In this document: positions 3,074 through 20,552 of the stretch, one piece after another
Position numbering within the stretch: the stretch's first letter is position 1
Layout: each line of letters begins with the position of its first letter
NCBI RefSeq assembly: GCF_000009965.1
Contig: NC_006624.1
Span: 1,830,001 to 1,862,000, forward strand
Source: Thermococcus kodakarensis KOD1
GTDB taxonomy: Archaea > Methanobacteriota_B > Thermococci > Thermococcales > Thermococcaceae
Reading direction: 5' to 3'
Length of the DNA: 32,000 bases
Notes under the pieces: model-generated
The model's input: only the letters and a program-made list of their open reading frames with translations
Told to the model about the DNA's origin: nothing
The model's database searches: none
Program-made: the position numbers and the translations under genes

Positions 3074-3522
3074 CGCCTCCCGAGAAACCTTGGCAGGCTG
3101 AGGGTTCTAACCTGATCCATAATCTGGGAGCGCAGGAGCATCCTCGGCTCTCCTGTCAGCCTAACTCTGAGCATCTTGGGTATTCTGGTTTGAGGGGGTA
3201 AAACTCTGATTTCCTGTATTTTCTTTACTTCATGCTCAACCTCTTCCGGGGAAAGTGGCCTATACAGTCCTTGGGCGATTGCCAGCTCCCTGTCGTGTGC
3301 GCCATCTTTCTTACCCCTGCGGTAGGCATCAATGGCCTTCCTTAAGACGCCGCTCTCCTCAGCGCTCTCCAAGACGGAATCTCTAAGCTCACGCCATACG
3401 CCGACCCAGTCGGTATGGCCGTAGTACGCTATAAAGTAGCCCAGAAGGTAGGCCTTCTTTACAGGATCTCCCTCCGCAAGAATCTTTTTGAGGTCGAGCG
3501 GCCCTTTCGGCAGTTCCTTCAT
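3070..3522 (-). CDS. Hypothetical 150-aa protein translationally coupled to the KaiC-like ATPase
   Basis: 4-nt overlap with the upstream ATPase gene (3519-3522). The protein looks helical with a basic C-terminal tail (RIPKMLRVRLTGEPRMLLRS...LPRFLGRR). I recognise no motif. Confidence 0.6.
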   Translation of the reverse strand: MKELPKGPLDLKKILAEGDPVKKAYLLGYFIAYYGHTDWVGVWRELRDSVLESAEESGVLRKAIDAYRRGKKDGAHDRELAIAQGLYRPLSPEEVEHEVKKIQEIRVLPPQTRIPKMLRVRLTGEPRMLLRSQIMDQVRTLSLPRFLGRR

Positions 3523-4220
3523 AAAACTGGCCCCCTAACAACGAGGCCCTTTGGTCCGAACTCCAGGCGGTACATCTTGGTCTCGTGCCTTGTTCTCCTC
3601 ATCTTGAGAACCTGGATTGCCCTTGCCATATCGTTGCCTTCCAGGTAGTAGTGGAGCATTATGACGCCGTCAACGAGATAGTGCTCCTCGCTGTACCTGT
3701 CCAGGTCGGTCAGCTCTGCTATCAGAAGGCTGGTTATCCCGAGGGCACTCATTGTCCTGAGGAACGTGGCAAGCTCTGCCCTCTTCTCAGCGGGGTCAGA
3801 AGTCGGGAAGTCTATGGCCGTGAGCGGGTCTATTACAAGGCGAGTTATGTTGCTTTCCCGGACAAGATCTTTTATCCTGAACATGACACTGCTCCACTGG
3901 GGCGGCTTTGCGGTCGAACCCCAGAGCTCCTTCCCCAGGTCGTACAGTATCAGGTTTCCCTTCTGGACGTAGTTCCAGACTGCCGGATCAAAACGCTCGT
4001 AGTCCTTTATTACCTCTTCAGGATCCTGGACGAGGGATATGTAAGCTACCTTCTCGCCCCTTTTGGCACCATCAACCAGAAACTGGACACCGAATGTCGT
4101 TTTCCCGCTTCCAGGAGGGCCAGTGATGAGGTATGACTTTGACTTAACAAAACCCCCCTCTATTAGGGGGTCAAACCCTTCGATACCAGTTGGAACCCTT
4201 TCAACCCTTCCAGTAATCAT
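3519..4220 (-). CDS. Single-domain KaiC-like / RadA-paralog RecA-superfamily ATPase
   Basis: TGIEGFDPLIEGGF followed by Walker A GPPGSGKTTFGVQF. Walker B-like ITRLVIDPLTAI. Length 233 aa, typical of archaeal stand-alone KaiC-like ATPases. Confidence 0.85.
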   Translation of the reverse strand: MITGRVERVPTGIEGFDPLIEGGFVKSKSYLITGPPGSGKTTFGVQFLVDGAKRGEKVAYISLVQDPEEVIKDYERFDPAVWNYVQKGNLILYDLGKELWGSTAKPPQWSSVMFRIKDLVRESNITRLVIDPLTAIDFPTSDPAEKRAELATFLRTMSALGITSLLIAELTDLDRYSEEHYLVDGVIMLHYYLEGNDMARAIQVLKMRRTRHETKMYRLEFGPKGLVVRGPVL

Positions 4221-4355
4221 GTTGCAGCACCTATGCTCATTGTAGGTTCAAAATCCTATAAAGTTTTTCGTGAAAGTTTTGGTAAAATATTCAACTTCTT
4301 GAAGGGTTGAAAGGGTTATAAAGGTGAACGCCAGAATAGATTATGGTGAGCATCA

Positions 4356-4967
4356 ATGCTCAGGGAAATCCTTGAGACCATCGAAGCGCGCGGCGGGGGG
4401 CTTGTTTTAGTGGAGTATTCTTCCCTCGATCACCCGGAGCTTGTGTTCGCTGAGATCATTACCGGCTGGAGAGAGAAAGGTATAATACCTCTGATTGTGG
4501 ACATTGGCGACACTCTCCATATTTTCACGTCCAAATTGCGGATGATGGGGGTAAACATCGAGGTTGAAGATTTCCCAGTTGTTAAAGAAATTGGGAACAC
4601 GAGGGTTGGTAACATCGTAGGTGAAGTCCATGAGATAGAGGATTTTGATTACCATATGGCAAAATACGCTCAAATAGCCAAAAAGGTGCCGGAAGAGAGC
4701 AAAAAGCATACGATAGTCCTCGGAATGGAGAAGTTCTCTTTTACCTTCATGGACAATCCCCCGAAGCTTGAGAGGTACTTTGAGAAGATAAACAGAAGGT
4801 ACCTGAAATATCCTGATGTGAAGGACGTTATCTTCCTGAACACTTCAGTGGCTAGCGAATACCTCACCAAGAGCCTCGAACAGGACTATGACTACGTTCT
4901 CCGACTGAGGGGAACAGATCTCAGCCTCGTAAAAACACCCGGGGGTGAAAGCGTTGAAGTTCGGTGA
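4356..4967 (+). CDS. Walker-A-less KaiC/RecA-like protein (DUF257-like), paralog 1
   Basis: GGGLVLVEYSSLDHPELVFAEIITGWREKGIIPLIVDIGD aligns by eye with the KaiC-like pattern (G-x-hhhh-G-x-PGSGKT-x-F-x-x-Q-F ... G-x-x-hhYh). The P-loop is replaced by YSSLDHPE. The DUF257 name is from memory. Confidence 0.6.
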   Translation: MLREILETIEARGGGLVLVEYSSLDHPELVFAEIITGWREKGIIPLIVDIGDTLHIFTSKLRMMGVNIEVEDFPVVKEIGNTRVGNIVGEVHEIEDFDYHMAKYAQIAKKVPEESKKHTIVLGMEKFSFTFMDNPPKLERYFEKINRRYLKYPDVKDVIFLNTSVASEYLTKSLEQDYDYVLRLRGTDLSLVKTPGGESVEVR

Positions 4968-5565
4968 GTACTTAGAAACTTTAAGGCCGGGAGAAAGTGT
5001 TCTCGTCGAGCACACATCTATTTCGCCCTACCCAGTGCTCTTCTACGAGATAGGAAAAAATAGCGGGTGGGACAACATCCTGGTGATTGACATAATAGAC
5101 TCTGCACTCCCCGTTTTGAGGTGGCTTAAGTTTGCGGGTTTAGATGTGCCCGAGAAGAGCATAGCCAGGATAAAAGCGGGCGGCACTTCAGAGTGGGGGA
5201 GGATTGTAATTGACGTGGATCCGCATAAGGATCCGGGGATTTTCATGAGCAAGTTCCTTTCGAACCTCCTCAGTTATTACCGCGCAAACAAAAACGTGAC
5301 GACGATTATAATGAACCCCGAGAGGATTATTCCCCTCCAGGACAACAGACCTTCGTTCGTTCTCTACCTTGCGAACGCGGCCGCTGGGTTCCTTGGCAAT
5401 CCGCACAGGAAAACTTTCTACTTCGTGAATTATGAACTTGCGCATAAGGGGTACCTTGCACTTCTTGAAGAAGCCTTCACGCGCGTCCTGAGGATAGAGG
5501 ACAGCTCAGTTAGGATACTGAAGTCGCTAAACCTTGACGAGGAGGGGACAACCCTCCAGCTTTGA
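4945..5565 (+). CDS. Walker-A-less KaiC/RecA-like protein (DUF257-like), paralog 2
   Basis: GTG start overlapping the upstream gene by 23 nt. PGESVLVEHTSISPYPVLFYEIGKNSGWDNILVIDIID has the same layout as paralog 1, with HTSISPYP in place of a P-loop. Confidence 0.55.
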   Translation: MKALKFGEYLETLRPGESVLVEHTSISPYPVLFYEIGKNSGWDNILVIDIIDSALPVLRWLKFAGLDVPEKSIARIKAGGTSEWGRIVIDVDPHKDPGIFMSKFLSNLLSYYRANKNVTTIIMNPERIIPLQDNRPSFVLYLANAAAGFLGNPHRKTFYFVNYELAHKGYLALLEEAFTRVLRIEDSSVRILKSLNLDEEGTTLQL

Positions 5566-5602: not shown

Positions 5603-6475
5603 ATGGAAGAGATTTATTACATCACGTTCAGAGAGGCCAGAATGCTCCTCGCTTCAAGGGGAAATGTCAAGCTCAACCTCGACCTAAGGAAAACTAACAG
5701 GGTCCAAGAAGTCGAGATAAAAGATGAAGGAGCGGTTTTTCCGGACGGTACCCTCGTTGAGAGGGAAGTTCTTGAGAAGATAGCCAGAGACGATGGGACG
5801 GTCTACTTCGTTTCTAACGGTGGGGTGTATAAAGCGGCCATAGCGGGTGAATCAGGCTTTTACAAGCTCGTCCCAACGATTCCACCGACGATAGAGATAA
5901 ACGGTATTCGAATGCACCGAACAAAGGAGATGAACCCCCTCCAGGACACGAGGAACAAGGTGAACACTGTGATGCCGAGGGAGGGTGAAACAGTCCTCGA
6001 CACCTGCATGGGGCTGGGTTACACCGCTATCGAGGCATCAAAGAGGGGAGCCTACGTCATAACCATAGAGAAAGACCCCAACGTCATTGAAATAGCGAGG
6101 ATAAACCCCTGGAGCAGGGAGCTGTTCACGGGAGGGAAAATCCAGGTCATCCAGGGGGACGCCTTTGAGGTAGTTAAGAAGTTCAAGCAAGCAAGCTTTG
6201 ACGTGATCATCCACGACCCCCCGCGCTTCTCATTGGCGGGCCATCTCTACTCAGAGGAGTTCTACAGGGAGCTTTTCAGGATTCTTAAGCCTGGTGGAAG
6301 GCTCTTCCACTACGTAGGCAACCCGGGGAAGAAGTACAGGAGAAAAGACCTCCAAAAGGGAGTCATGGAAAGGCTGAGGAGAGTCGGTTTTGTCGGCGTT
6401 AGAAGGGTCGAGGAAGCGCTTGGGGTTGTGGCAAGAAAGCCTGAAAAGGGAGTAAAAGCGAGCCAGCGGGATTAA
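5603..6475 (+). CDS. Class I SAM-dependent methyltransferase with a DPPR(F) catalytic motif and a roughly 120-aa N-terminal extra domain
   Basis: Motif I VLDTCMGLGYTAIEA, post-I VITIEKD, motif IV IIHDPPRFS (amino-group methyltransferase type), then LKPGGRLFHY. The substrate cannot be called from sequence. Confidence 0.75.
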   Translation: MEEIYYITFREARMLLASRGNVKLNLDLRKTNRVQEVEIKDEGAVFPDGTLVEREVLEKIARDDGTVYFVSNGGVYKAAIAGESGFYKLVPTIPPTIEINGIRMHRTKEMNPLQDTRNKVNTVMPREGETVLDTCMGLGYTAIEASKRGAYVITIEKDPNVIEIARINPWSRELFTGGKIQVIQGDAFEVVKKFKQASFDVIIHDPPRFSLAGHLYSEEFYRELFRILKPGGRLFHYVGNPGKKYRRKDLQKGVMERLRRVGFVGVRRVEEALGVVARKPEKGVKASQRD

Positions 6476-7872
6476 ATCCCGCCGACCTCTTCCAGCTCTT
6501 CGAAGGCTTCCAGGTTGGTGTAGTAGTCCATTAGTTTAGCCAGCTCTTTTCTCAGCCTGATGCTCCTGACTATGGCTATTCCAAAGCCTATGATCGAGGG
6601 CCATATGAGGTAGAGGAGCAGCCTTGCGTCGCTTATCGGTATCGGCCTCGGGTCTGTGAAGCGGTTGAAGTTCCATATCATAAGGGCTATCATGAGCCAG
6701 GCCGTCGAGAAGTTGGTAAGTCCACTGCCGCTCTCTCCAAGCTTAAATCCTGGAATGACGTCCTTGGTTATCGGCGGGAAGAGGTTGCTGCCCATGAAGC
6801 CCAGCTGGTCCTCGAAGACGTGGAGCCACTGGCCTATCATCGAGGCGAGGGCAAGGTCAGTCGCGTGGCTGTAGCCGAAGAGCTTCGCCAAGAGGAAGAC
6901 CACAGCACCGATTATCACTCCCATCGTCATCGAGTGGCTGAAGCCGTGGTGCCAGGGCAGGAACCTGTCCTTGACCACCGTCTTGCCCTGGTGTTTTGTG
7001 AGTCTGAAGGCTATCTCTGGCCCTGAGAACGAGTCTATTCTCGTCGGCTTCGGGTAGGTCTTGATGAACGGCACGTTCACCCTCGCTATTCCGTACTTCC
7101 TGTACTCCGGCGGCTCGCCCCCAATGGCGACCCCACCGGGGGTGACTATCGGCCCCATCTCGACCCTTACCTCCCTCTTCGGCGGGTCGAGGTGTATCCA
7201 GAACTGCCTGTAAACGTCTCCCGGAAGGCGGATGTTGTGTATCTTGACTATCTTCTCGCCCTCTTCGTAGGCCTTTTCTATTGCCTCGGCTATGATGTCG
7301 GCGATTCCCTGCGGGTGCGGGGCATCGCTGACGACGAACCTCAGCGAGCCGTCTGGATCAACGTCCACGTAACCGAACACGAGCATTTCTTTGCCCTCTT
7401 CGATCTGACCGAACTCCTCCTCGAAGATCTTGTAGTCGTCTCCAAAGGCCTCAACGGTTATCTTTCCAGTCCCGTCATTGAGGATGAAGACTATCGTGTT
7501 GTACTCTTCCGTTACCGTCTTCACGTTGCCCTTCTCATCAAAGACCTCGTAGGACATCGTCCCTGAGCCTTTTGTGAGTATCTCCTCGACCCTACCCTCG
7601 ATGGCGAAGAACTGGTAGCGGTTCTTCTCGCTCAGATCCTTTATTTTAACGAGCTTGGGCGCGTAGTGCTTCTTCTCGTCCCATGGAGCCGGGTCTATCT
7701 CGTAGTCCCTCCTCGCGAAGAACTTGCCGAACTTGAAGTCCACGAAGTCAGGGAAATAAGCCGAAGCCGCCGCTATGACCGCTGCCAGAGTGCCCATCCT
7801 TATGTCGGCAACTAGGGCGGGGAAGAAGGTCGCCGCGGCGAGGCCCGATATGTAGTGAGTGAAACCCCTCAT
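6472..7872 (-). CDS. YdjM/DUF457-type membrane-embedded metal-dependent hydrolase interrupted by a roughly 255-aa insertion containing an OB-fold-like module
   Basis: The family motifs appear in order: N-terminal THYISG, FPDFVDF (PDxD box), WHHGFSHSMTMG (compare HRGFTHS in E. coli YdjM, from memory), and QWLHVFEDQLGFMGSNLFPP (compare SHxxxD...P...P). The insertion spans residues about 51-306. It includes FFAIEGRVEEIL...IVFILNDGTGKITVEAFGDD...MLVFGYVDVDPDGSLRFVV, an RPA/anticodon-type OB signature. Confidence 0.7.
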   Translation of the reverse strand: MRGFTHYISGLAAATFFPALVADIRMGTLAAVIAAASAYFPDFVDFKFGKFFARRDYEIDPAPWDEKKHYAPKLVKIKDLSEKNRYQFFAIEGRVEEILTKGSGTMSYEVFDEKGNVKTVTEEYNTIVFILNDGTGKITVEAFGDDYKIFEEEFGQIEEGKEMLVFGYVDVDPDGSLRFVVSDAPHPQGIADIIAEAIEKAYEEGEKIVKIHNIRLPGDVYRQFWIHLDPPKREVRVEMGPIVTPGGVAIGGEPPEYRKYGIARVNVPFIKTYPKPTRIDSFSGPEIAFRLTKHQGKTVVKDRFLPWHHGFSHSMTMGVIIGAVVFLLAKLFGYSHATDLALASMIGQWLHVFEDQLGFMGSNLFPPITKDVIPGFKLGESGSGLTNFSTAWLMIALMIWNFNRFTDPRPIPISDARLLLYLIWPSIIGFGIAIVRSIRLRKELAKLMDYYTNLEAFEELEEVGGI

Positions 7873-7878
7873 CTCACA

Positions 7879-9207
7879 TCACCCCAGTCCGAGCAGGTGC
7901 ATGAACACTTCTGTGTGTCCGGTCATGCTGAGGAGTACTGGCAGTATGAGGCCGCCGAGGCAGTAGCTCCTCCTCGTGTTGAAGGCAGCCGCCATTAGGC
8001 CGATGGCAGTTGAGACGAAGAGCACGACCACTCCCATCCAGCCCGTCAGGAGGTAGGAGATAACGACGAGCACTGCCGCGACGAAGTAGGAGACCTTCTT
8101 GATGTGCATGACGTTGAAGCTCCTCGCTATGAGCCTTGAAAGCCCGTAGGTGAAGAGGAAGCTTATTCCAGAGGCGAGCAGGATGACGCCGATGGCCGCT
8201 ATGTACTCCGAGTAGCTCTTGGGCGTGTAGAGGGAGCTGACGAGCCACGCTCCAGCTCCCCTCGTGAGCCTCAGGTTCGGCAGGAAGAGAAGTGAGAAGG
8301 CCCCGACGTAGTAGAGGACTCTGTTGACGCCCTGGCTGATGATGAATGCGTCGTCGCCGCGCTGGCTCGTCATATGCCCCGCTACCATTGCTCCCATACC
8401 TCCAGTGATTATCGGATAAACTGCAGCTATTGTCCCTCCGAGGGCACCTCCGAAGCTGGCCTTCAGGGTGTTGTAGATACTGCTCTCGACTTTGTCCTCG
8501 GGCTTCTGCGGGAGCATCGGCGGGTTGGAGAGTATGTTGAGTATCACCCACGACATTCCGAAGAAGCCTATGAACATCGGCGTTAGCCTCGTGTAAGCAC
8601 TAGTCGCTGGCAGGATGTTGGTGTTCGTGACTATGAACCCGAGTATCCCCGAGAGGAAGAACACGAAGATTCCGCCGAGTATCTGCCTCCAGGCAAGCCA
8701 GAGCCTTTCCTTCACCGTCTTGCCCCTGTCGCCTTCCTTGGGCCACTCGCTCATGAACATGAAGAGGACGATGGCCACGAGGAAGTAGGTGATGTACGGG
8801 CTGGTCGCCTGGTATATCGGCGGCAGCACCTTGGGGAATACGAAGAGCATTCCGAGGACGAGGATCAGCGTTCCCGCAACGGCCCCGATGAGGTAGAGCA
8901 GTACCGCCTCATGCCCCCTGCCGAGGAGGAGGTACCTCTGTGTCGGGAAGAGGAGGAACACTGCACTCTCGTCAGCAACGCTGAAGTAGACGCTGGAAAT
9001 TGCGCTCACGTAGGCGTAAGCGACTATGGCTCCCACTGCGAAGAACGGGAACGCCTGGACTGGCATGAGCTCACCCACGCCGAAGACCGCCACCAGTAGG
9101 GCTATGATGTTGTAGATGTGGAACCCTGGAATCCAGGATATCAGCGAGCCGAAGAGCACGCCGGCGAACGACCAGATTAAAAGATCTGAGAGGGGGAGCA
9201 CGGCCAT
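7879..9207 (-). CDS. TctA/DUF112-like polytopic membrane protein (about 12 hydrophobic segments)
   Basis: Highly hydrophobic 442-443 aa ORF. Gly-rich blocks FGGALGGTIAAVYPIITGGMGAMVAG and RGAGAWL resemble TctA-family large subunits (from memory). The ATG at 9207 overlaps the upstream stop (TGATG). The track's GTG at 9210 is the alternative start. Confidence 0.6.
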   Translation of the reverse strand: MAVLPLSDLLIWSFAGVLFGSLISWIPGFHIYNIIALLVAVFGVGELMPVQAFPFFAVGAIVAYAYVSAISSVYFSVADESAVFLLFPTQRYLLLGRGHEAVLLYLIGAVAGTLILVLGMLFVFPKVLPPIYQATSPYITYFLVAIVLFMFMSEWPKEGDRGKTVKERLWLAWRQILGGIFVFFLSGILGFIVTNTNILPATSAYTRLTPMFIGFFGMSWVILNILSNPPMLPQKPEDKVESSIYNTLKASFGGALGGTIAAVYPIITGGMGAMVAGHMTSQRGDDAFIISQGVNRVLYYVGAFSLLFLPNLRLTRGAGAWLVSSLYTPKSYSEYIAAIGVILLASGISFLFTYGLSRLIARSFNVMHIKKVSYFVAAVLVVISYLLTGWMGVVVLFVSTAIGLMAAAFNTRRSYCLGGLILPVLLSMTGHTEVFMHLLGLG

Positions 9208-12185
9208 CACCTCACCTCTATGGCATCGGCGGTGTACGGGATGACCTCAACCGTCCCCTTGTACTCAGTCACGTAGCCTCCGACCCTTATCGTCTGTCCC
9301 TCGCTGAAGGTTAGGTCTCCTCCGACGCTCTTCGGGATGAAGATAACCAGCTCCCCGCTTCCGTCGTCTATCGTGAGCTTGATGAAAGTCCTTCCTTCGT
9401 AAACGTCCTTGATCGTGCCCTCAACGATTACTGTTTTGCCCTTCATGTCGAGGGTGACGTCGCCAGTCTTGTAAGTCTCGGAAGGTATAGCCTCGATGAC
9501 GGTGAGTGAGACCACTTTCTTTGCGTCGGCGTCGTAGGTTATCTCTATCCTGCTTCCCGTTCCGGCCTCGAACGGGTTCGGGAGGAGTTCGCGGCTGATT
9601 GAGAGTGTGGCACTTCCTGTATCGTCGCTGACGGTGATGTAGTAGCCGTTGTCGTAGTCCAAGCTATCCCAGACCACGGTAAGGTTCACCTGGCCAGTAG
9701 CTGAGGAAAGCTCTGAAACGGTGACCTCCTTGGTGGTCTCAGTTCCTCCTTGCGATGGTGCTCCCTCGACCTTCACTGCCTCGGTGGTGTACACTACGAG
9801 CTCCGGTGCACCGTTGTACTCTTCCACGTAGCCTGCCGTATAGACCACTGAGCCCTCGTCAACGCTCAGTTCTGCACCGTTCGGTATGAACACCGCTATC
9901 CCACCGCTTCCGTCGTCGAGGGTGAGCTTGAGGTTGTCTCCAACTGCCGCTACCTTGACTGCTGTCGCGTTGAGTGCTATGACCTTACCCTTCATGTCGA
10001 GCGTAACCTCTCCAGTCTGGTAAAGCTTCGGTGGAACTGCTTTTGCAATCTCCAGGGAGGTTACACTGCCGGAGAGCGGGTCGACAACGAGTTTGAGAGT
10101 GCTCCCAGTGGCAGCTTCGAGCGGGTTCGGTAGGAGATCCTTGGTTGCCGTCACGGTCGTGCTTCCCGTGTCGTCGTGGATTCCAAGGTAGTACTCTCCG
10201 CTCTCATAGGAGAGGGAGTCCCATGTGACCGTCAGGAGGAGCGGCTCGGTTGCGCTCTTGAGGTCAGATACCGTTCCCTCAACTGGCCCGCTCGCCCCTA
10301 TCTTTCTGATGGCCTCTGGGTGGAAGACGACAATCTCAGGCTCGTCGCGGTAGAGCTCAACGTAGCCGCCTATCTCAACTAGGTCGCCCTCCTGTGGGAC
10401 GTAGGCCAGCTCGTTGGCAGTAGTCCTTGGCACGAACACCGGGAGGCTTCCAAGGGTTATCTTGAGGTTGCCGCTGAGGTTCGCAACGTCCGTGACCCTG
10501 CCCGCGACGGCCACTACTTTGCCCACCATGTCCGATGTAACGTCCTCAGGCTTTATCTGAACTGGCGGAACCGCAGCCTGCACGGTCAGGGACTCTCCCT
10601 TGAGATTGTTCGGATCCTTGACGAACCCCCTTATGACGAGGACGCTTCCTTCACCCGCGTCGAGTGGGTTAAGGGCCATCAGGACGTCCCTCGAAATGGA
10701 GACGGTGACGCTGTCAACGTTCAGGTAGTAGGTTCCGTTGGCGTAGGTGAGTCCCTGGAGGGAGCCGACGAAGTCAACGAGCTTTCCAGTGTATTTTCCA
10801 AGCTCCGAGGCCTTAACCTTTGGAAGCTCGACTTCTGAAGAACCGACTGGCCTTCCCAGTGCCTTTATTCCGCTGCCCGTGTAGACAACTACCTCCAGGC
10901 TGCCGCGGTACTCGTCGAGGTAGCCGGCGACCTCAACGCCGAGCCCTTCCTTGAGGTCTGCTAGGGTCTCGTTGGAGAGCTCCCTGAGGGCGGCCGACGG
11001 TATGAATACGTCTATCTTCCCCGTTCCGTCGCTCACGACGAGCTTGAGGTTCGAACCGACGTTCTGGACGTCTTCAATATTCGCCTTGACTGCCACTATC
11101 GTGCCCTTCATGTCGGGTGTTAAAACTCCAATCGGAAGGAACTCCGTTTTGACGGCCTCAATGACCCCTAGATACGCGCCGACGAGCCTGCCGTCGTCAC
11201 CCATCTTTCCAGCGGCCTTGATTAGGCTTCCGCTTGCCAGCTCGAACGGGTTGAGGTTGGCGAGGACTTCCCTCGGGACGAGAACTTCGAGGTAGTTGGT
11301 TCCGTCGGTGAGCGTGAGGACGTAGCGGCCGCTCTCGTAGGTTATTCCCGTGAGGCTGCCCTGAACTGACATGACCATTCCGACGTAGCCAGGAGCTTCC
11401 GCCAGCGGAACGAGCGGCGCGCTCTCTATCGGCGTCACGTTGAACTGCTCAAGCGACCTGACGACGATTTCAGGGGAGGTTCCCTTGTAGAGGTAAACGA
11501 TACCAGGAGCATAAACCGTGTCTCCAACCTTCACAGAAACGTTGTTTTTGATGAGGAGAACCCTCGGTATGAGGACGGTCACGGGCGCAACTCCAGTATC
11601 AACCGTCAGGAGGTAGCCGGAGCTGACGTTGGAGAACTCGGTAACGACGCCCTGAACGGCGACGTAGGTGTTGCTCATGTTCTCGGTGAGCTCCATCACT
11701 GTTTTGGGACTCTCGGAATAGAGCTTGTTATTAAATTCCAGGCCCCCGAGATATTGGAGTATCGCATAGGTGTAGGTCTCCCTAACGCGGAGCTGCACTT
11801 CAGCGGTGACGTTGTCTCCCGGGAACGGGATCACGCCCTTTTCAACCATTTCATCCGCGAGCGGCGAGTAAACCCTGACGTCCATCTGACCAGTCCCGTC
11901 GTCTATCGTGAACGTCAGCGAGAGCTTACCGCCGGATTCCGATACGTAGGGAACGCTCGAGATGGTTCCGCTCAGCCTTACGACGGCGTAGTTCATCATG
12001 TAGTTGCCAGTGACGTCGCTGACCTTCATCAGCGGGGCCTGGGCGCTCTGAGCAGCCACCAGGAGCACCGCGACCCCAATCACCGACAGCAGAAGGGAGA
12101 GGTATTTCAGCTTCGATACGTCGATCTTCTTCTGTTCCTTTAGGCCGTGATAATACAGCTTTTTCTCTTGTTTTTCGCCGGCCAT
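9207..12185 (-). CDS. Signal-anchored surface protein (992 aa) built from about ten tandem OB-fold-like modules
   Basis: A K-rich N-terminus is followed by one TM helix (LSLLLSVIGVAVLLVAAQSAQA, nt about 12045-12107), so the predicted topology is N-in/C-out. There are nine N-x-S/T sequons. Repeated cores are TIDDGTGQMDVRVY, VVSDGTGKIDVFIP, TLDDGSGGIAVFIP and TIDDGSGELVIFIP. Module ends are GYLDEYRGSLEVVVYT, GYVELYRDEPEIVVFH, GYVEEYNGAPELVVYT and GYVTEYKGTVEVIPYT. Confidence 0.75.
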   Translation of the reverse strand: MAGEKQEKKLYYHGLKEQKKIDVSKLKYLSLLLSVIGVAVLLVAAQSAQAPLMKVSDVTGNYMMNYAVVRLSGTISSVPYVSESGGKLSLTFTIDDGTGQMDVRVYSPLADEMVEKGVIPFPGDNVTAEVQLRVRETYTYAILQYLGGLEFNNKLYSESPKTVMELTENMSNTYVAVQGVVTEFSNVSSGYLLTVDTGVAPVTVLIPRVLLIKNNVSVKVGDTVYAPGIVYLYKGTSPEIVVRSLEQFNVTPIESAPLVPLAEAPGYVGMVMSVQGSLTGITYESGRYVLTLTDGTNYLEVLVPREVLANLNPFELASGSLIKAAGKMGDDGRLVGAYLGVIEAVKTEFLPIGVLTPDMKGTIVAVKANIEDVQNVGSNLKLVVSDGTGKIDVFIPSAALRELSNETLADLKEGLGVEVAGYLDEYRGSLEVVVYTGSGIKALGRPVGSSEVELPKVKASELGKYTGKLVDFVGSLQGLTYANGTYYLNVDSVTVSISRDVLMALNPLDAGEGSVLVIRGFVKDPNNLKGESLTVQAAVPPVQIKPEDVTSDMVGKVVAVAGRVTDVANLSGNLKITLGSLPVFVPRTTANELAYVPQEGDLVEIGGYVELYRDEPEIVVFHPEAIRKIGASGPVEGTVSDLKSATEPLLLTVTWDSLSYESGEYYLGIHDDTGSTTVTATKDLLPNPLEAATGSTLKLVVDPLSGSVTSLEIAKAVPPKLYQTGEVTLDMKGKVIALNATAVKVAAVGDNLKLTLDDGSGGIAVFIPNGAELSVDEGSVVYTAGYVEEYNGAPELVVYTTEAVKVEGAPSQGGTETTKEVTVSELSSATGQVNLTVVWDSLDYDNGYYITVSDDTGSATLSISRELLPNPFEAGTGSRIEITYDADAKKVVSLTVIEAIPSETYKTGDVTLDMKGKTVIVEGTIKDVYEGRTFIKLTIDDGSGELVIFIPKSVGGDLTFSEGQTIRVGGYVTEYKGTVEVIPYTADAIEVR
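9210..11414 (-). repeat. Intragenic protein-level tandem repeat: four two-module (B-A) units of about 170-190 aa
   Basis: The units are at residues 258-445 (nt 10851-11414), 455-630 (10296-10823), 637-808 (9762-10277) and 821-992 (9210-9725). B modules share x-Y-E/A/D-x-G-x-Y-Y/V-L...LxxNPxEAxxGS. A modules share T-x-DMKGK-x-V...NLKL-x-x-DDGSG...GYV-x-EY-x-G. Units 3 and 4 are the most alike. Confidence 0.7.
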
Positions 12186-12338
12186 AAACCTGACCTCCGA
12201 TTATTTAACGTAGCGGAGGGGTTGGTGGGTGGCCTTTTTAACACTTTCGTGTCAAATCAATTCAGAGGTGGGCAGAACTGGGTAGGATTCAACATGACTT
12301 TCAGATATTGTAACTCTCAAGCCCTTGCACTGTCAAGG

Positions 12339-12346
12339 AAAAATAA
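12339..12346 (-). terminator. Oligo-T terminator (TTATTTTT on the minus strand) after the S9 peptidase gene
   Basis: The T-run lies 14-21 nt downstream of the stop at 12360-12362. Archaeal RNA polymerase terminates at oligo-T tracts. Confidence 0.5.
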
Positions 12347-12359
12347 GGTGAGAAGAGCG

Positions 12360-14310: not shown

Positions 14311-14637
14311 ATGAGGGAGACAACCGCGGTTGGAATCATACTGGCGTTGGGCGTTGGAATCTCACTTGTAACAAGGAACTACCTCGGCATAGCGTTCGCC
14401 GCGCTTGGAATTCCAGCGTATCTGGCCTACACAGCGAGGGAGCAGAACATTCTGGCGAAGTCCAGGCTCTACGACAGGGACCTCTTCCTGATGATAGTTA
14501 TCTCAGCGGCGGTCATACTGGCCTTCAACTACTTTTTCGACCCAAGGGCGGGCCTGATAATACTGGCGCTGGCGGTTCCACTGATAGCGCTATACGCGGA
14601 CAGGCTAAAGACCAGAAAGAAGGCTCAGGAGGCGTGA
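14311..14637 (+). CDS. Small membrane protein (108 aa, 3-4 TM helices), unknown function
   Basis: Hydrophobic segments VGIILALGVGISLV, LGIAFAALGIPAYLAY, LFLMIVISAAVILAFNYFF and LIILALAVPLIALYA, with a basic tail. I prefer it to the overlapping 146-aa frame, which is G/R/S-rich. Confidence 0.6.
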   Translation: MRETTAVGIILALGVGISLVTRNYLGIAFAALGIPAYLAYTAREQNILAKSRLYDRDLFLMIVISAAVILAFNYFFDPRAGLIILALAVPLIALYADRLKTRKKAQEA

Positions 14638-15255
14638 GAGGCTTCCGGTTCTCTTGTAGTGCCTCAGGGCATCTTTCATTTCTTCCCTGAACTTCTCGTC
14701 GAGACCAAATTTCTCCCGCACCCTCTTTGATATTGCGTTCTCACCTATGAAAATCATCGCCATCGCCGAGGTCAGGTTGTTTGGCTTCCTGAACCCTGCT
14801 TTCTCGAAGTCTATCAAGTAAACGTCCTCGCCGATTATGATGTGCTTCCCGCCCTGTATCTGCCCGTGGTCTATGCCCAGCCGATCCAGGAGTGCGGTTT
14901 TCTCCACTATCCTGAAGAGATGCTCCTTTTCCACGTCCGCGAAGAGGATAGGTTCACCCTCGGCGAACTCCCTGATGAGGTAGGGAAGGCCCTCGAACTC
15001 GCCAAGGCCAATGATCGGAGGAGTTACCCCAAAGGTGGAGGCAATTTTGGTAAGTTCAGCTTCTTTTTCGAAGTTGCTCCTCGGTGAGTCTGGTCTTTGA
15101 AGCTTTATCACGACTTTCCTCCCGCCTAAAACTCCAGTGAAGACTAGGCTCGTCGTCCCCTTGGCGAGTGGCTCAACGCCTCCAACGCCCTCCTCGGCCA
15201 GGTGCCTTAGAAATCCTTCCAGCCTTTTACTACTTATGATGTGTTCGAACGTCAT
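14605..15255 (-). CDS. Small atypical protein-kinase-fold protein (Bud32/RIO-like, COG2112-like)
   Basis: Gly-loop AKGTTSLVF, VAIK-like VVIKLQRP, catalytic-loop-like DHGQIQGGKHIII, and DFG-like LIDFEKAG. I place the start at the internal ATG (15255, MTFEHI...). The longer track ORF (to 15378) would run through the divergent promoter and the neighbouring gene. Confidence 0.65.
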   Translation of the reverse strand: MTFEHIISSKRLEGFLRHLAEEGVGGVEPLAKGTTSLVFTGVLGGRKVVIKLQRPDSPRSNFEKEAELTKIASTFGVTPPIIGLGEFEGLPYLIREFAEGEPILFADVEKEHLFRIVEKTALLDRLGIDHGQIQGGKHIIIGEDVYLIDFEKAGFRKPNNLTSAMAMIFIGENAISKRVREKFGLDEKFREEMKDALRHYKRTGSLSRLLSLLSGL

Positions 15256-15304
15256 ACGCGATAAGCTTAAATAGTCCGGCGATAAAATATTTTTGGTGAT
15301 AGCC

Positions 15305-15532
15305 ATGGTGACGGCTTTTATTCTGATGGTTACGGCCGCCGGAAAGGAAAGGGAAGTTATGGAGAAGCTTCTTGCCATGCCCGAAGTTAAAGAGGCCTAC
15401 GTCGTTTACGGTGAGTACGACCTCGTTGTTAAGGTCGAGACCGAGACGCTCAAGGACCTTGACCAGTTCATAACCGAGAAGATAAGGCGCATGCCCGAGA
15501 TTCAGATGACCTCGACGATGATAGCCATCTGA
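15305..15532 (+). CDS. Stand-alone RAM domain protein (Lrp/AsnC ligand-binding domain only, no HTH)
   Basis: MVTAFILMVTAAGKEREVMEKLLAMPEVKEAYVVYGEYDLVVKVETETLKDLDQFITEKIRRMPEIQMTSTMIAI is the beta-alpha-beta-beta-alpha-beta AsnC_trans_reg pattern (G-x-Y-D-hhhhh). At 75 aa it is too short to include a DNA-binding domain. Confidence 0.8.
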   Translation: MVTAFILMVTAAGKEREVMEKLLAMPEVKEAYVVYGEYDLVVKVETETLKDLDQFITEKIRRMPEIQMTSTMIAI

Positions 15533-15630: not shown

Positions 15631-16548
15631 TCATTCCACCATTTTTAGGAATATTTCTTCGAGGGTGGGTTCTTTGATTTGTAGGGTGAGTATTTTTGCT
15701 CCTTGTTTTGCTACGTAGTCGTGGAGTTCTTCCCTGATGTCTCTCTCGGCCACAATCCTGTACTTGTTTTCGCCGAGGGGTGAAGCGCGCCAGGGAGCAC
15801 TGCTCCAGTCGACGGGCTTGCTCGTCTCCAGAATTATCGTGTAGCCCGCTTTCTCAAGGAACTCGCGCTTAATCTCTTCCAAGCTTCCTTCCCTGATGAG
15901 TTTTCCCTTCACGATGACTCCAACGGTATCGCAGATCTCCTCAACGTGGGCCAGGATGTGGCTTGAGAAGAAGACCGTTTTGCCCGCCTTCCTCTGCTCC
16001 CTGATTATGTCTTTGAATTCTGCGATGCCCTTTGGATCCAGGCCGCTCATTGGCTCGTCGAGGATTAAGAGGTCCGGGTCGTTAATTAGGGCCTGAGCCA
16101 GGAGGAGTCTCTGTCTCATGCCCTTTGAGAATTTGCCGACTTTTCTGTTCTTAGCCTCGCTTAGGCCGACTAAGTCTAGGAGTTCTTTGATTCTTTTCTC
16201 CTTCTCGGCCTTCGGAATTTTGAAGGCGTCGGCGATTATATCGAGGGTTTGGACTGGTGTGAGAAAGTCCCAGAGGGTCGCATGCTCGGGCATGTAGCCG
16301 ATTCTCTTCTTTGCTTGGACGAGGTTGTTCTCGTCGAATTTTCCATCCCTGAAGACTTCTAGGTCGAAGAGCTGAATGCGGCCTTGTTGTGGGAAGATTA
16401 GGCCGAGGGTGCTGAGGATGGTGGTGCTTTTTCCTGCTCCGTTTGGGCCTAGGAAGCCGTAGATTTGGCCGGGTTTAACCTCAAGGTTAAGGCCGTCGAG
16501 GGCCCTAACGTCCTTGTAGAATTTGACGAGATTCTCAACTCTCATCAC
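15631..16548 (-). CDS. ABC transporter ATP-binding protein (ABC-2/CcmA-type)
   Basis: Walker A GPNGAGKSTT, Q-loop, signature FSKGMRQRL, Walker B LLILDEPMSGLDP, H-loop SSHIL, and a C-terminal accessory domain. Confidence 0.9.
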   Translation of the reverse strand: MMRVENLVKFYKDVRALDGLNLEVKPGQIYGFLGPNGAGKSTTILSTLGLIFPQQGRIQLFDLEVFRDGKFDENNLVQAKKRIGYMPEHATLWDFLTPVQTLDIIADAFKIPKAEKEKRIKELLDLVGLSEAKNRKVGKFSKGMRQRLLLAQALINDPDLLILDEPMSGLDPKGIAEFKDIIREQRKAGKTVFFSSHILAHVEEICDTVGVIVKGKLIREGSLEEIKREFLEKAGYTIILETSKPVDWSSAPWRASPLGENKYRIVAERDIREELHDYVAKQGAKILTLQIKEPTLEEIFLKMVE

Positions 16549-16554
16549 AAACCA

Positions 16555-17475
16555 TCACCTCAAATCCATCCTAAGGAACCTGACTAATCCAAGCGCGAGG
16601 TACACGGGGGTGAGGCCCAGGATTATGAGAACCGGGGCCGGATTTTTGGCTATGGAGTGGCTGACCCCCAGGTATTCAATCGTGTATGTTCCGTCGTTAT
16701 TGAACGAGATTTTTTCTATGTCTTCAAACGCCTCTATCATCATTACCTGGGGTGCGTAGAAGAGGTACTTCAGGTGGTACTCTTCCTGAAGCTCCTCAAG
16801 CCTCTGCTGGTACGCCGAGGCCTCTTCCGGGGTTAATTTGAGAAAATCTCCCCTCTTCTGGATTCCGAATTCCTTATCCGCTTTCTTCTCTGCCCACCCA
16901 TCAACAACCTGGGGCATCACCAGGGAAGTCACAAGGAATAGGACAAGGGCAACTCCAAGGGCCGTGTTCTGGGAGCGTATCACGCTCGATATAAGAATTC
17001 CCAGGGCAAGGAGCTGGAGCATCGCCAGGAGGATGAGACCGTTGGCCAGCACGAGGTCGGAGATCAGCTTCCCCGTGAGCGAGACTCCGTAGTACTTTGT
17101 TATAACGAAGGAGAGCAGGGTGGCGATGAGAATGGCCACGATTATGCTGACCGACTGGCCCAGGAACTTGCCCAAGAGATAGGGGGCTCTTCTTATGGGC
17201 TTGCTGAGGGCCAGTCTTATCGTCCCGTTCTCAAGGTCGGAGTTCAGCGCGGTTGCCCCAGCGATGAGCGCGTAGAGCCCTATGAAGAGGAATGCACCCG
17301 CTACCACGTATTCTACGAGGCTCACTGCCAGGACTTCCTGAGGATTCGAGGCACTCTCAAGGTTGCCTTGGATTTCATAAAAAGCCATGATGTAGATCAG
17401 CACCATCAGAGCCGTTATCAGCCAGAACTTCTTCTGCCGTATGCTGTTCCCAGCTTCTAGTTTTAGACTCCACAC
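16555..17475 (-). CDS. ABC-2 family permease (NosY/YhaP-like), one module with a roughly 90-aa loop insertion
   Basis: 6 TM segments. ENGTIRLALSKPIRRAPYLLGKF follows TM1-TM2. A charged insertion (EKKADKEFGIQKRGDFLKLTPEEASAYQQRLEELQEEYH...) precedes the last TM. Confidence 0.7.
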   Translation of the reverse strand: MWSLKLEAGNSIRQKKFWLITALMVLIYIMAFYEIQGNLESASNPQEVLAVSLVEYVVAGAFLFIGLYALIAGATALNSDLENGTIRLALSKPIRRAPYLLGKFLGQSVSIIVAILIATLLSFVITKYYGVSLTGKLISDLVLANGLILLAMLQLLALGILISSVIRSQNTALGVALVLFLVTSLVMPQVVDGWAEKKADKEFGIQKRGDFLKLTPEEASAYQQRLEELQEEYHLKYLFYAPQVMMIEAFEDIEKISFNNDGTYTIEYLGVSHSIAKNPAPVLIILGLTPVYLALGLVRFLRMDLR

Positions 17476-17480
17476 CTATA

Positions 17481-20257: not shown

Positions 20258-20552
20258 TTTATCACCACAGGAATTCAATCGGGATTTGGCAGGAGGCATG
20301 AATGCTAATGAGCCACTTTTTATATATCTAAAAACTTTAGCACTACTTTAAAGATATCCTCAATTCCAATCAGGAAAAGTTAGAAGGAGAACTTAAAAAT
20401 TTACCTCTTGTCTGTTCCTCATGCGCTTTAGCCCTCGCGGCATCCTTAGACCCTTTGAACACCGCTAAGGGACATGGGATAATGGGCTGGCCGGCATCGT
20501 GGGGAGTACACTCCAACTTCGACCTCTAATTCTGGAGGGAGATACGGCATAA

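Follow-up and report, generated by a model that had tools for sequence, protein, structure and literature searches.

The 32,000-nucleotide stretch of the Thermococcus kodakarensis KOD1 genome analyzed here (the window) contains three minus-strand genes, TK2048, TK2047, and TK2046, arranged as a tightly coupled operon. The stop codon of TK2048 overlaps the start of TK2047 within TGATG at 9209-9205, the TK2047 ATG occupying 9207-9205, and a 6-nt gap (7873-7878) separates TK2047 from TK2046. The coupled ORFs, the overlap, the gap, and an upstream 174-bp spacer with A/T boxes were all found as claimed in an earlier reading of the same DNA, the original prediction. We infer a candidate promoter for the operon within this spacer. 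At the other end, the TK2046 stop codon overlaps a convergent methyltransferase gene by 4 nt (6472-6475), and a hairpin at this stop, recognized by consensus match, is terminator-like. The features are:

12186-12359, minus strand: 174-bp upstream intergenic spacer with A/T boxes, candidate archaeal promoter and ribosome-binding site
12249-12244, minus strand: BRE-like CGAAAG, read directly in the spacer
12241-12234, minus strand: TATA-like TTAAAAAG, approximately 50 nt 5' of the TK2048 ATG
12208-12201, minus strand: second A/T box TTAAATAA in the spacer upstream of TK2048
12198-12193, minus strand: Shine-Dalgarno GGAGGT, 7 nt 5' of the TK2048 ATG at 12185
9207-12185, minus strand: gene 1, TK2048 ORF, 992 aa
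12045-12185, minus strand: TK2048 K-rich N-terminal tail (residues 1-25, MAGEKQEKKLYYHGLKEQKKIDVSKLKY) and TM anchor (approximately residues 26-47), by hydropathy
9210-12035, minus strand: OB array M1-M10, predicted extracellular, by module alignment
11736-12035, minus strand: M1, canonical type A
11436-11735, minus strand: M2, canonical type A
11151-11435, minus strand: M3, divergent type B
10866-11150, minus strand: M4, canonical type A
10566-10865, minus strand: M5, divergent type B
10302-10565, minus strand: M6, canonical type A
10038-10301, minus strand: M7, divergent type B
9786-10037, minus strand: M8, canonical type A
9507-9785, minus strand: M9, divergent type B
9210-9506, minus strand: M10, canonical type A
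7879-9207/9210, minus strand: gene 2, TK2047 ORF, 442/443 aa
7879-9207, minus strand: TK2047 as TctA-like (DUF112) polytopic membrane protein, near-complete PF01970 model
6472-7872, minus strand: gene 3, TK2046 ORF, 466 aa
7318-7665, minus strand: TK2046 OB insert, approximately residues 70-185, AF2 strands between residues 88 and 181, pI 4.4
6958-7317, minus strand: TK2046 second insert domain, alpha/beta, approximately residues 186-305 (about 120 aa), basic, pI 9.4
6475-6957, minus strand: TK2046 C-terminal membrane core, TM3-TM6 (residues ~306-445, AF2 helices), and acidic tail ending EEVGGI
6461-6487, minus strand: terminator-like hairpin across the TK2046 stop codon (12-bp stem, 7 GC pairs), then T-rich tail CGCTTTTACT

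Five stretches of TK2048 matched the PF01336 OB fold in Pfam (E = 3e-31), and hydropathy placed a TM segment at residues 26-44 (peak 2.33), bearing out the K-rich N terminus and single TM helix proposed earlier. By the positive-inside rule applied to the K-rich tail, the N terminus would be cytoplasmic. About ten like OB modules had been expected; ten were indeed found, but they fall into two classes, six canonical (M1, M2, M4, M6, M8, and M10) and four divergent (M3, M5, M7, and M9), related to one another with an hhalign probability of 94% (E = 1e-7). The module alignment showed the DDG(T/S)G..V and GYV.EY.G..E.VV signatures described before. For M9-M10, the AF2 model (pLDDT 91.2, pTM 0.83) comprised two five-stranded barrels whose best PDB matches by Foldseek were the tandem-OB proteins Teb1 AB, HIN-200, P. 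abyssi RPA, and Stn1, and the closest sequence relatives of the modules were ssDNA-binding OBs from RPA32/Rfa2, archaeal RPA, Stn1, the ExoVII large subunit, and the PolD small subunit. Pfam, sequence, AF2, and Foldseek thus agreed on OB modules of the nucleic-acid-binding type, as opposed to Ig or CBM.

The TK2048 ectodomain has a pI of 4.46, a net charge of -51, and no Cys, and the individual OB modules are all acidic, with pI values of 4.1-6.4. It carries ten N-x-S/T sequons, where nine had been claimed, a modest excess only over the 5.2 ± 2.0 obtained in shuffles. So acidic, Cys-free, and glycoprotein-like an ectodomain could belong to an envelope or surface component, in which the OB rod would act as spacer, adhesin, or scaffold under the S-layer, with the membrane partners serving its assembly or envelope/pilus biogenesis and the methanogen transformation defects described below being secondary. 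The array is fast-evolving (TK2048 is 63% identical to its T. celer orthologue, whereas gene 2 reaches 85% and gene 3 reaches 77%) and varies in length among relatives (approximately 450, 680, or 990 aa), and the pTM of the two-module model is consistent with a fixed relative orientation. Neighboring genes fit as well: pilus-type ATPase and platform genes are next to the TctA-like gene in Methanobacterium, and trios also occur in bacteria, some with a PLD-family gene upstream. We nonetheless find this explanation quite improbable, as the OB subtype matches nucleic-acid binders instead of carbohydrate- or protein-binding OBs, the cytoplasmic OB of TK2046 would have no obvious role in a scaffold, and most TctA-partner proteins in the loci examined have one small OB only, too short for a spacer.

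Proteins of the TctA family are secondary carriers of small carboxylates or anions, and no member is known to transport a polymer. TK2047 matched the PF01970 TctA model over positions 1-422 of 423 in Pfam (E = 1.8e-43), in keeping with the predicted TctA/DUF112 character; the figure of 12 TM helices given with it is only approximate, a crude hydropathy profile yielding approximately 11-13 hydrophobic segments. The protein can be aligned end to end with TctA-like proteins of archaea, an alignment in which G, P, H, and R positions are invariant, and a sequence search detected no solved structure. The Thermococcus-type permease is approximately 25% identical to the widespread clade and has the motif SWIPGFHIYN instead of GLIPGIHVN. 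When 72,556 plasmids were searched by tblastn with TK2047, the only matches were two cyanobacterial genes annotated as TctA (23% identity), which suggests that TK2047 is distant from classical bacterial TctA.

The full-length PF01970 match, the suitability of the TctA carrier fold for small anions, and a Pfam scan of the window ORFs that found no TctB or TctC family gene are all compatible with a secondary transporter of the tripartite-tricarboxylate type whose solute would be a small anion, for example an organic acid, nucleotides, or short oligonucleotides. In place of TctC, the OB array would then serve as the extracellular receptor, and the YdjM hydrolase would process the import at the inner face. 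Acidic OB surfaces favor such a role, as does the abundance of the TctA-like family in DPANN archaea (for example, Woesearchaeota and Nanoarchaeota), which depend on scavenged building blocks. Yet a small-solute receptor would not need as many as ten OB modules or an RPA-like OB in the cytoplasm, and the plasmid search suggests that TK2047 is distant from classical TctA; we regard this transporter as possible but unlikely.

TK2046 matched PF04307 YdjM in two stretches (E = 3e-11, 43.4 bits versus a cut-off of 29) and PF01336 (E = 2e-6) in Pfam. A YdjM core split by an OB insertion, as predicted, was thereby recovered, but the insert also holds a previously undescribed alpha/beta domain of about 120 aa. 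AF2 modeling from 29 sequences (pLDDT 86.9) gave this domain a helix at 188-204 and approximately nine strands (pLDDT 80-96). It had no Pfam match and no PDB sequence matches, the latter falling on the OB region only, and was kept in 29 of 29 aligned homologues, including four OB-less short forms (P0038-P0041), one of them annotated as from a Chloroflexota bacterium. The TK2046 profile matched 167 representatives (50% identity) at E ≤ 1e-30; most of the best 150 of these were 310-360 aa forms with the alpha/beta insert, and in 2 of the best 150 the OB insert was matched full length through the OB region. The best Foldseek matches of the TK2046 OB were P. abyssi RPA (22-23% identity), RPA70, and an M. 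maripaludis RPA OB, and the family profile matched the small TctA-partner OB of locus L003 over the OB positions (E = 8e-10).

Invariant or near-invariant residues of TK2046 are H6, D42, D45, H308, H313, H351, E354, and D355. The C-terminal helices span 315-331, 337-357, 384-405, and 415-463, and archaeal members conserve the tail, EE[VI]GG[ILYF], which is disordered in the model. One face, predicted to be cytoplasmic, holds both the K/R-rich loops and the His/Asp cluster. Across the 29 homologues, the positive-inside rule predicts the inner side for the His/Asp cluster, the alpha/beta domain, and the OB insertion, the last of which had been placed there before. TK2046 is a putative YdjM-family membrane hydrolase with a predicted cytoplasmic insert of an RPA-like OB and a basic alpha/beta domain. 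To our knowledge, no nuclease activity has been demonstrated for YdjM-family proteins. With OB modules predicted on the inner and the outer side of the membrane, and with E. coli ydjM a member of the LexA/SOS regulon, the operon might instead release DNA or RNA outside or into membrane vesicles, or act in membrane-associated repair. We judge this very unlikely: no repair or vesicle genes are linked to the operon in the window, and the only genetic data for the family, from the study considered below, concern import.

A pattern scan detected TctA-like relatives in 513 GTDB archaeal species genomes. A small one-TM OB gene lay in the flank of 42 of the 82 TctA-like loci examined (80 from the pattern scan, together with L002 and with L001, a duplicate of L014), mostly abutting upstream. 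These small OB partners are acidic (median pI 4.66), and an HMM of such partners from other archaea matched TK2048 at E = 1e-41, covering the TM segment and the first OB. The trio itself also occurs in T. celer, Thermosphaera chiliense, and one uncultured contig, and the YdjM-OB third gene is linked at 25 of 26 metagenomic loci, defined as OB-bearing YdjM genes with enough upstream sequence, and at 4 genomic loci. In the metagenomes, the TctA-like gene abuts 25 of the 26 OB-bearing YdjM genes versus 6 of 28 loci without OB, and a TM and OB protein of 435-996 aa lies upstream of the TctA-like gene wherever sequence allows. Synteny outside this genome, a check set in advance, was therefore found in archaeal genomes and metagenomes. 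On the two points that could be settled in silico, the fold of the modules and synteny elsewhere, the results favored the original prediction.

According to a 2023 study (PMC10133366, Mol Genet Genomics), in-frame deletion of the adjacent M. maripaludis genes MMJJ_13020, encoding a single-TM OB protein, and MMJJ_13030, encoding a TctA-like protein, abolishes natural transformation and is complemented in trans, and a TctA-like homologue is essential for transformation in Methanoculleus thermophilus. The same study proposes that the TctA-like protein transports DNA and counts T. kodakarensis among the species with a family member (PMC10133366). Nucleic-acid uptake is thus already published as an idea at the family level; it gains real support from the genetics of both methanogens, and a statement that uptake machinery has yet to be proposed for archaea is outdated. 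Loss of the pair, as described there, abolishes uptake of an intact replicating plasmid, for which a nucleotide importer is not obviously required, which argues against the small-solute transporter. We assume that the methanogen genes belong to the widespread TctA-like clade, and we infer orthology with the T. kodakarensis genes from architecture and family, by published description. No YdjM-type gene was found near the 82 widespread-clade loci or among the genes in the accessible part of the methanogen screen table (PMC10133366), which indicates, within that coverage, that the third component is not a general requirement.

We propose, at a probability of approximately 0.5, that TK2048, TK2047, and TK2046 form one membrane complex, the form that the archaeal combination of single-TM OB and TctA-like proteins takes in Thermococcus/Desulfurococcales, most likely for extracellular DNA uptake in natural transformation. 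The rod of ten OB barrels on one N-terminal TM helix would project from the membrane and capture DNA, and the membrane-proximal part of TK2048, homologous to the small one-OB partners, may hand the substrate to the translationally coupled TK2047, which, as the methanogen genetics suggest, would provide or gate membrane passage. TK2046 is predicted to present its RPA-like OB, basic alpha/beta domain, and His/Asp metal site at the cytoplasmic membrane surface, and might there receive the incoming strand, cleave it, or both. Caution on DNA uptake is warranted by the TctA fold, which is that of a small-anion carrier, by the acidity of the OB modules, and by the approximately 25% identity of the Thermococcus-type permease to the widespread clade, and the methanogen transformation defect could be indirect. 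T. kodakarensis is naturally competent, and the literature searched, up to July 2026, names no uptake gene for it. The original interpretation thus stands in part: OB folds, synteny, and the predicted topology were upheld and the uptake reading gained support, while the parallel with ComEC is one of analogy and the statement on uptake machinery is outdated.

ComEC has an established role in bacterial DNA import. Its OB/DUF4131 domain, competence channel, and metallo-beta-lactamase nuclease have counterparts here in the OB modules, the polytopic TK2047, and the metal-dependent hydrolase predicted for TK2046, but the T. kodakarensis parts are three separate proteins and the hydrolase site is predicted to be cytoplasmic. 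No homology was detected: DUF4131 scored 17.7 bits, below its cut-off of 31.6, a profile of the partner OB proteins failed to align with E. coli ComEC (hhalign probability 0.2%), and Pfam detected no Competence or Lactamase_B domain in the three genes. The parallel drawn originally is one of analogy, a resemblance in logic that would be achieved with unrelated parts. TK2047 is homologous over its full length to the TctA subunit of bacterial TctABC (PF01970), but is shorter (442 aa) and has an OB protein as partner instead of a Bug-family binding protein, with TctB and TctC families absent from the window ORFs scanned. With YdjM/YbcI (DUF457, PF04307), inner-membrane putative metal hydrolases, TK2046 shares a score above the cut-off and His/Asp positions conserved across the aligned subfamily, but its core is split by the approximately 250-aa insert of OB and alpha/beta domain. 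The archaeal and eukaryotic proteins RPA, Stn1, and HIN-200 share the fold and tandem OB barrels and give the best sequence and structure matches; they are soluble and intracellular, whereas the ten acidic TK2048 modules are membrane-anchored and predicted to be extracellular.

The closest counterpart is the MMJJ_13020/MMJJ_13030 pair, by its published description (PMC10133366): a PF01336-type OB protein with an N-terminal anchor and a permease of the TctA family are encoded side by side, without TctB or TctC, in a host that is likewise naturally competent. TK2048 differs in having ten OB modules, where most partners at the loci examined have one; TK2047 lies in a separate clade, at the approximately 25% identity given above; and the T. 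kodakarensis system has a strictly linked YdjM-OB third gene. This third gene, the variation in OB-array size, and the bacterial trios appear to be previously undescribed. The trio would represent a widespread archaeal pair enlarged to three parts, and it is the best current candidate for the DNA-import machinery of T. kodakarensis.

The three proteins encoded by the operon are TK2048, TK2047, and TK2046 of Thermococcus kodakarensis KOD1, the last being 100% identical to a protein annotated as a hypothetical membrane protein. The open reading frames, the two tight junctions, and the upstream spacer described in the original prediction were all confirmed on the sequence.

9207-12185, minus strand: TK2048 (gene 1), 992 aa, array of OB modules
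7879-9207, minus strand: TK2047 (gene 2), TctA-like permease
6472-7872, minus strand: TK2046 (gene 3), YdjM membrane protein with an OB and alpha/beta insert
9209-9205: TGATG, overlapping stop of TK2048 and start of TK2047, co-directional
7873-7878: 6-nt gap between TK2047 and TK2046
12249-12234: BRE/TATA-like CGAAAG..TTAAAAAG, within the 174-bp spacer upstream of TK2048
Same spacer: GGAGGT, 7 nt ahead of the TK2048 ATG

The BRE/TATA-like element is a candidate operon promoter, and the stop of gene 3 lies within a hairpin followed by a T-rich tail. A sigma-70 promoter scan was set aside as the host is an archaeon, and only the 3'-end hairpin was retained. None of the three proteins was mentioned in the literature searched or listed in the T. 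kodakarensis transcriptome supplements.

Several neighboring genes were also recorded. The stop of gene 3 shares 4 nt (6472-6475) with that of a convergent SAM-methyltransferase gene (5603-6475), and this methyltransferase is also found beside the operon in T. celer. In the region 3519-5565, the minus-strand gene for a KaiC-like ATPase (3519-4220) adjoins two tandem, partly overlapping DUF257 paralogues (4356-4967 and 4945-5565, both plus strand). No Pfam match was obtained for the ORFs at 14605-15378 (257 aa) and 19025-20299 (424 aa), found on either side of an ABC-2 transporter gene cluster (15631-19028), or for that at 21734-22747 (337 aa), which adjoins a BPD_transp_1 permease gene (20553-21737).

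TK2048 begins with a K-rich tail of 25 residues followed by one TM segment (residues 26-44), beyond which lie 10 modules of 84-100 aa each. Pfam matched the OB fold family PF01336 in five stretches (E 3e-31). Six modules are canonical, with the motifs DDG(T/S)G and GYV.EY.G..E.VV, and alternate with four divergent ones (M3, M5, M7, and M9); the two types are related by hhalign (probability 94%, E 1e-7). M9-M10 was modelled with AlphaFold2 from an alignment of the four other module pairs of TK2048 itself, which gave two five-stranded barrels (pLDDT 91.2, pTM 0.83); the best Foldseek matches to this model in the PDB were the tandem-OB proteins Teb1 AB, HIN-200 domains, Pyrococcus abyssi RPA, and Stn1 (E 1e-5 to 1e-7). 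Because the pair both models and matches as tandem OB, the OB fold proposed for the modules stands, in preference to an Ig, CBM, or other fold.

The TK2048 ectodomain holds 10 sequons, compared to 5.2 +/- 2.0 in shuffled sequences, and no cysteine. Its net charge is -51 and its pI 4.46, every module being acidic. Modules of this OB type would be expected to bind nucleic acid, and their acidic pI is a caution. The array might otherwise be a scaffold related to the envelope or a pilus; we consider this distinctly improbable. An acidic ectodomain with sequons and no cysteine speaks for it, and the match of the modules to nucleic-acid binders such as RPA speaks against it. Gene 1 diverges fastest of the three, with 63% identity to its T. 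celer orthologue compared to 85% for gene 2 and 77% for gene 3.

TK2046 matched PF04307 (YdjM) in two stretches with 43.4 bits (cut-off 29), and PF01336 was matched as well. A model built from 29 homologues (pLDDT 86.9) divides the protein as follows.

Ahead of the insert: two N-terminal TM helices
Residues 88-181: OB barrel
Residues 188-304: second alpha/beta domain, pI 9.4
After the insert: four further TM helices, then a long helix at the C-terminus
Window 6475-6537, residues ~446-466: disordered acidic C-terminal tail ending EE[VI]GG[ILYF]

The best matches to the fold were P. abyssi RPA (22-23% identity), RPA70, and the N-terminal domains of MCM, and the family profile of gene 3 also matched, over its OB positions, the small OB partner of the TctA-like gene at one scanned locus, L003 (E 8e-10). 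No Pfam or PDB match was found for the alpha/beta domain, and no solved structure was found by sequence for the hydrolase-type YdjM part. Residues H6, D42, D45, H308, H313, H351, and D355 are invariant or nearly so among the 29 homologues and with E354 form a conserved cluster (H6/D42/D45/H308/H313/H351/E354/D355), from which metal-dependent hydrolase activity is predicted. A soluble insert of ~250 aa between TM2 and TM3 sets TK2046 apart from the compact all-membrane YdjM form (family model of 176 positions); it belongs to a distinct YdjM subfamily. An exhaustive search with the gene 3 profile gave 167 representatives at E <= 1e-30. The best 150 of these are mostly 310-360 aa with the alpha/beta insert and no OB, and only two of the 150 match at full length through the OB region. 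The acidic tail is kept in archaeal TK2046 homologues, is different in the OB-less short forms (P0038-P0041), and looks like a short docking motif in the style of the bacterial SSB acidic tail.

Across the 29 homologues, K+R counts per loop averaged 4.0 after TM2, 3.0 in loop 4-5, and above 3 after TM6, compared to 0.07-1.3 in the intervening loops. By these counts, the two domains of the insert, the His/Asp cluster, and both termini are predicted to be cytoplasmic, and the placement of OB modules on both sides of the membrane, as first proposed, is borne out as a prediction.

The order OB array, TctA-like gene, YdjM-OB gene extends beyond T. kodakarensis, as anticipated. In T. celer the three proteins measure 990/440/465 aa and the genes on either side of the operon are unchanged; the order recurs in Thermosphaera chiliense (682/444/465 aa), an uncultured contig (674/441/447 aa), and metagenome loci. 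A scan of metagenomes with the gene 3 profile returned 80 loci, of which 30 carry the OB insert. Upstream sequence of 1.4 kb or more is available for 26 of these 30; the TctA-like gene abuts the YdjM gene in 25 of them (gaps of -11 to +18 nt) and lies 759 nt away in the other. The two are co-inherited. Wherever the contig extends upstream of the TctA-like gene, a protein of 435-996 aa with an N-terminal TM segment is encoded, and OB profiles matched 33 of 37 such ORFs. Array lengths group near 450, 650-690, and 990 aa. Thermococcus-like contigs whose gene 3 products are 84-86% identical carry arrays of either ~650-680 or ~991-996 aa, which points to about three modules having been gained or lost recently.

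L090:1968-4007, Thermococcus-like contig, OB array
L091:3307-5256, Thermococcus-like contig, OB array
L092:2691-5666, Thermococcus-like contig, OB array
L094:2677-5667, Thermococcus-like contig, OB array

The TctA-like gene is also present in 19 of the 50 metagenome loci lacking the OB insert, and several of these are complete trios, one of which is bacterial, since a LacI-family regulator adjoins it. In a further bacterial contig (L085:6679-9314), with ECF sigma factor, PlsX, and L32 genes as neighbors, an OB array of 441 aa with a basic pI of 9.3 and an N-terminal zinc-ribbon-like CxxC pair accompanies a TctA-like gene of the Thermococcus type (43% identity), with no adjacent YdjM gene; this suggests transfer between domains. 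At six loci with an OB-less YdjM (L169, L134, L146, L149, L157, and L158), a recurring protein family combines two PLD-like domains with a lamin-tail domain. At L169:1052-3817 the gene for this protein (921 aa) precedes the OB-array, TctA-like, and YdjM genes in the same orientation; the protein could be a nuclease or phospholipase.

TK2047 matched PF01970 (TctA) with E 1.8e-43 and 149.2 bits (cut-off 28.9) over model positions 1-422 of 423. Its homologues at 43-95% identity are from Thermococcus and Desulfurococcales. Full-length relatives at ~25% identity make up another clade, far larger and marked by the motif GLIPGIHVN. A scan for this motif in one genome per GTDB species found the larger clade in 513 genomes, including Hadarchaeota, Hydrothermarchaeales, Methanobacterium, Methanosarcinales MAGs, Methanofastidiosia, Altiarchaeota, Aenigmatarchaeota, and many Woesearchaeota and Nanoarchaeota. 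Methanococcus is absent from the 80 loci examined out of the 513, and protein searches with TK2047 or with a seven-sequence alignment gave no locus from it either. The TctA family consists of carriers, a caution for DNA passage. Import of a small anion or (oligo)nucleotide, with the OB array as receptor, is the corresponding alternative, and we regard it as unlikely; the family of the permease speaks for it, and the methanogen transformation genetics discussed below speak for DNA.

We examined 82 loci of the widespread clade, namely the 80 from the 513-genome scan together with L001, a duplicate of L014, and L002. A gene for a small protein, usually abutting and upstream, flanks the TctA-like gene in 42 of the 82, and no YdjM-type gene was found near any of them. 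The small partner (113-131 aa) combines one TM helix at its N-terminus with a single PF01336 OB. The profile built from such partners matched TK2048 with E 1e-41, aligning with its TM helix and first OB (residues 25-114) and with eight further modules. By this profile, most lineages have one OB module per protein, Hadarchaeota two, a Methanofastidiosia MAG three, and a bacterial contig four, compared to ten modules in T. kodakarensis; the profile is insensitive to the 674-682 aa arrays of Thermosphaera and relatives, in which it detects only 1-4. The solved sequences nearest to the profile are Rfa2/RPA32, archaeal RPA, Stn1, the ExoVII large subunit, the PolD small subunit, and YhaM, all of them nucleic-acid binders. 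Export or some other handling of nucleic acid is a further reading; with the transformation phenotypes of the methanogen pair bearing on uptake, we hold this to be the least probable of the readings considered, and very improbable.

At about 12 Methanobacterium loci (within L043-L082), the TctA-like gene lacks a small OB neighbor, and genes for a T2SSE-type ATPase, a T2SSF-type platform protein, and an M50 peptidase lie within 1-4 kb of it. As a single lineage is concerned, this context counts as one evolutionary event. The transformation screen in M. maripaludis likewise hit genes of these classes.

L043:10372-12009, Methanobacterium pilus-type/peptidase context
L068:12167-13303, Methanobacterium pilus-type/peptidase context
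L073:4110-4715, Methanobacterium pilus-type/peptidase context

The role we favor for TK2048-TK2047-TK2046 is DNA uptake, with a probability of roughly one half. Extracellular DNA would be captured by the OB rod of TK2048, would cross the membrane through TK2047 or under its gating, and would be received or cleaved at the cytoplasmic face by TK2046. Of this picture, the gene order, domain folds, conservation, and co-inheritance are shown, the topology is predicted, and the binding of DNA, its passage, and hydrolysis are inferred. Published genetics support the uptake idea and also make it not new at the family level. According to PMC10133366, in-frame deletion of either gene of an OB/TctA-like pair in M. 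maripaludis (MMJJ_13020 and MMJJ_13030) abolishes natural transformation and is complemented in trans, a TctA-like homologue is likewise required in Methanoculleus thermophilus, and the authors propose that the TctA-like protein is the transporter of DNA in archaea. Caution is called for chiefly by the carrier nature of the TctA family, the acidic OB surfaces, and the ~25% identity between the permease clades; the methanogen phenotype may also be indirect.

Archaea are not known to have ComEC, and to our knowledge the genetic leads to their import of free DNA are limited to pili and the methanogen pair of 2023. T. kodakarensis is naturally competent and among the most tractable archaea. A July 2026 paper on its transformation names no uptake gene. 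The locus places a pair related to the OB/TctA-like one in this organism and offers a model of three proteins whose predicted parts lie both outside and inside the membrane, and the excellent genetics of T. kodakarensis make the long-standing question of uptake directly testable. OB and TctA-like transformation genes as a kind are already known, having been published in 2023 (PMC10133366). In the literature searched, we found no description of the ten-module OB array, the separate permease clade, the array length polymorphism, the bacterial trios, or the strictly linked third gene with its predicted cytoplasmic RPA-like OB and metal-hydrolase core.

More tentatively, the trio may be a complete DNA translocase that works without ComEC, arose independently of the bacterial machine, and is common to hyperthermophilic archaea and some bacteria. 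The extracellular OB rod, its length tuned in module steps, would reel in DNA; a re-purposed TctA carrier would be the membrane conduit; and the YdjM-type metal hydrolase, with its own RPA-like OB, would degrade one strand or receive the single strand on the cytoplasmic side. If the three-protein model holds, it would define a second, independently evolved DNA-import machine, and its genes could serve to predict which uncultured archaea, and which of some bacteria, are competent.

The parallel with ComEC drawn in the original prediction does not hold as homology. Matches to DUF4131 were sub-threshold (E 0.003, 0.03, and 0.005), no Competence (PF03772) or Lactamase_B domain was found in the three proteins, and the partner-OB profile gave no signal above shuffles against the N-terminus of E. 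coli ComEC/YcaI by hmmsearch or hhalign. We retain it as an analogy. A classical TctABC identity was likewise rejected. TK2047 matches TctA over the full model, but in the operon it is accompanied by an OB array and a YdjM protein rather than by TctB and TctC, neither of which was found among the window ORFs scanned, and tblastn of TK2047 against 72,556 plasmids gave only two cyanobacterial TctA-annotated genes at 23% identity; a cyanobacterial plasmid hit showed no annotated OB partner. The tie to MMJJ_13020/13030 is one of family, architecture, and adjacency rather than of sequence alignment, together with the statement in PMC10133366 that the competent archaea with members of the TctA-like family include T. 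kodakarensis and P. furiosus. Like that pair, TK2048 is an OB protein with a single N-terminal TM helix, matching the partner HMM at residues 25-114, and it is followed by an adjacent, co-directional TctA-like gene.
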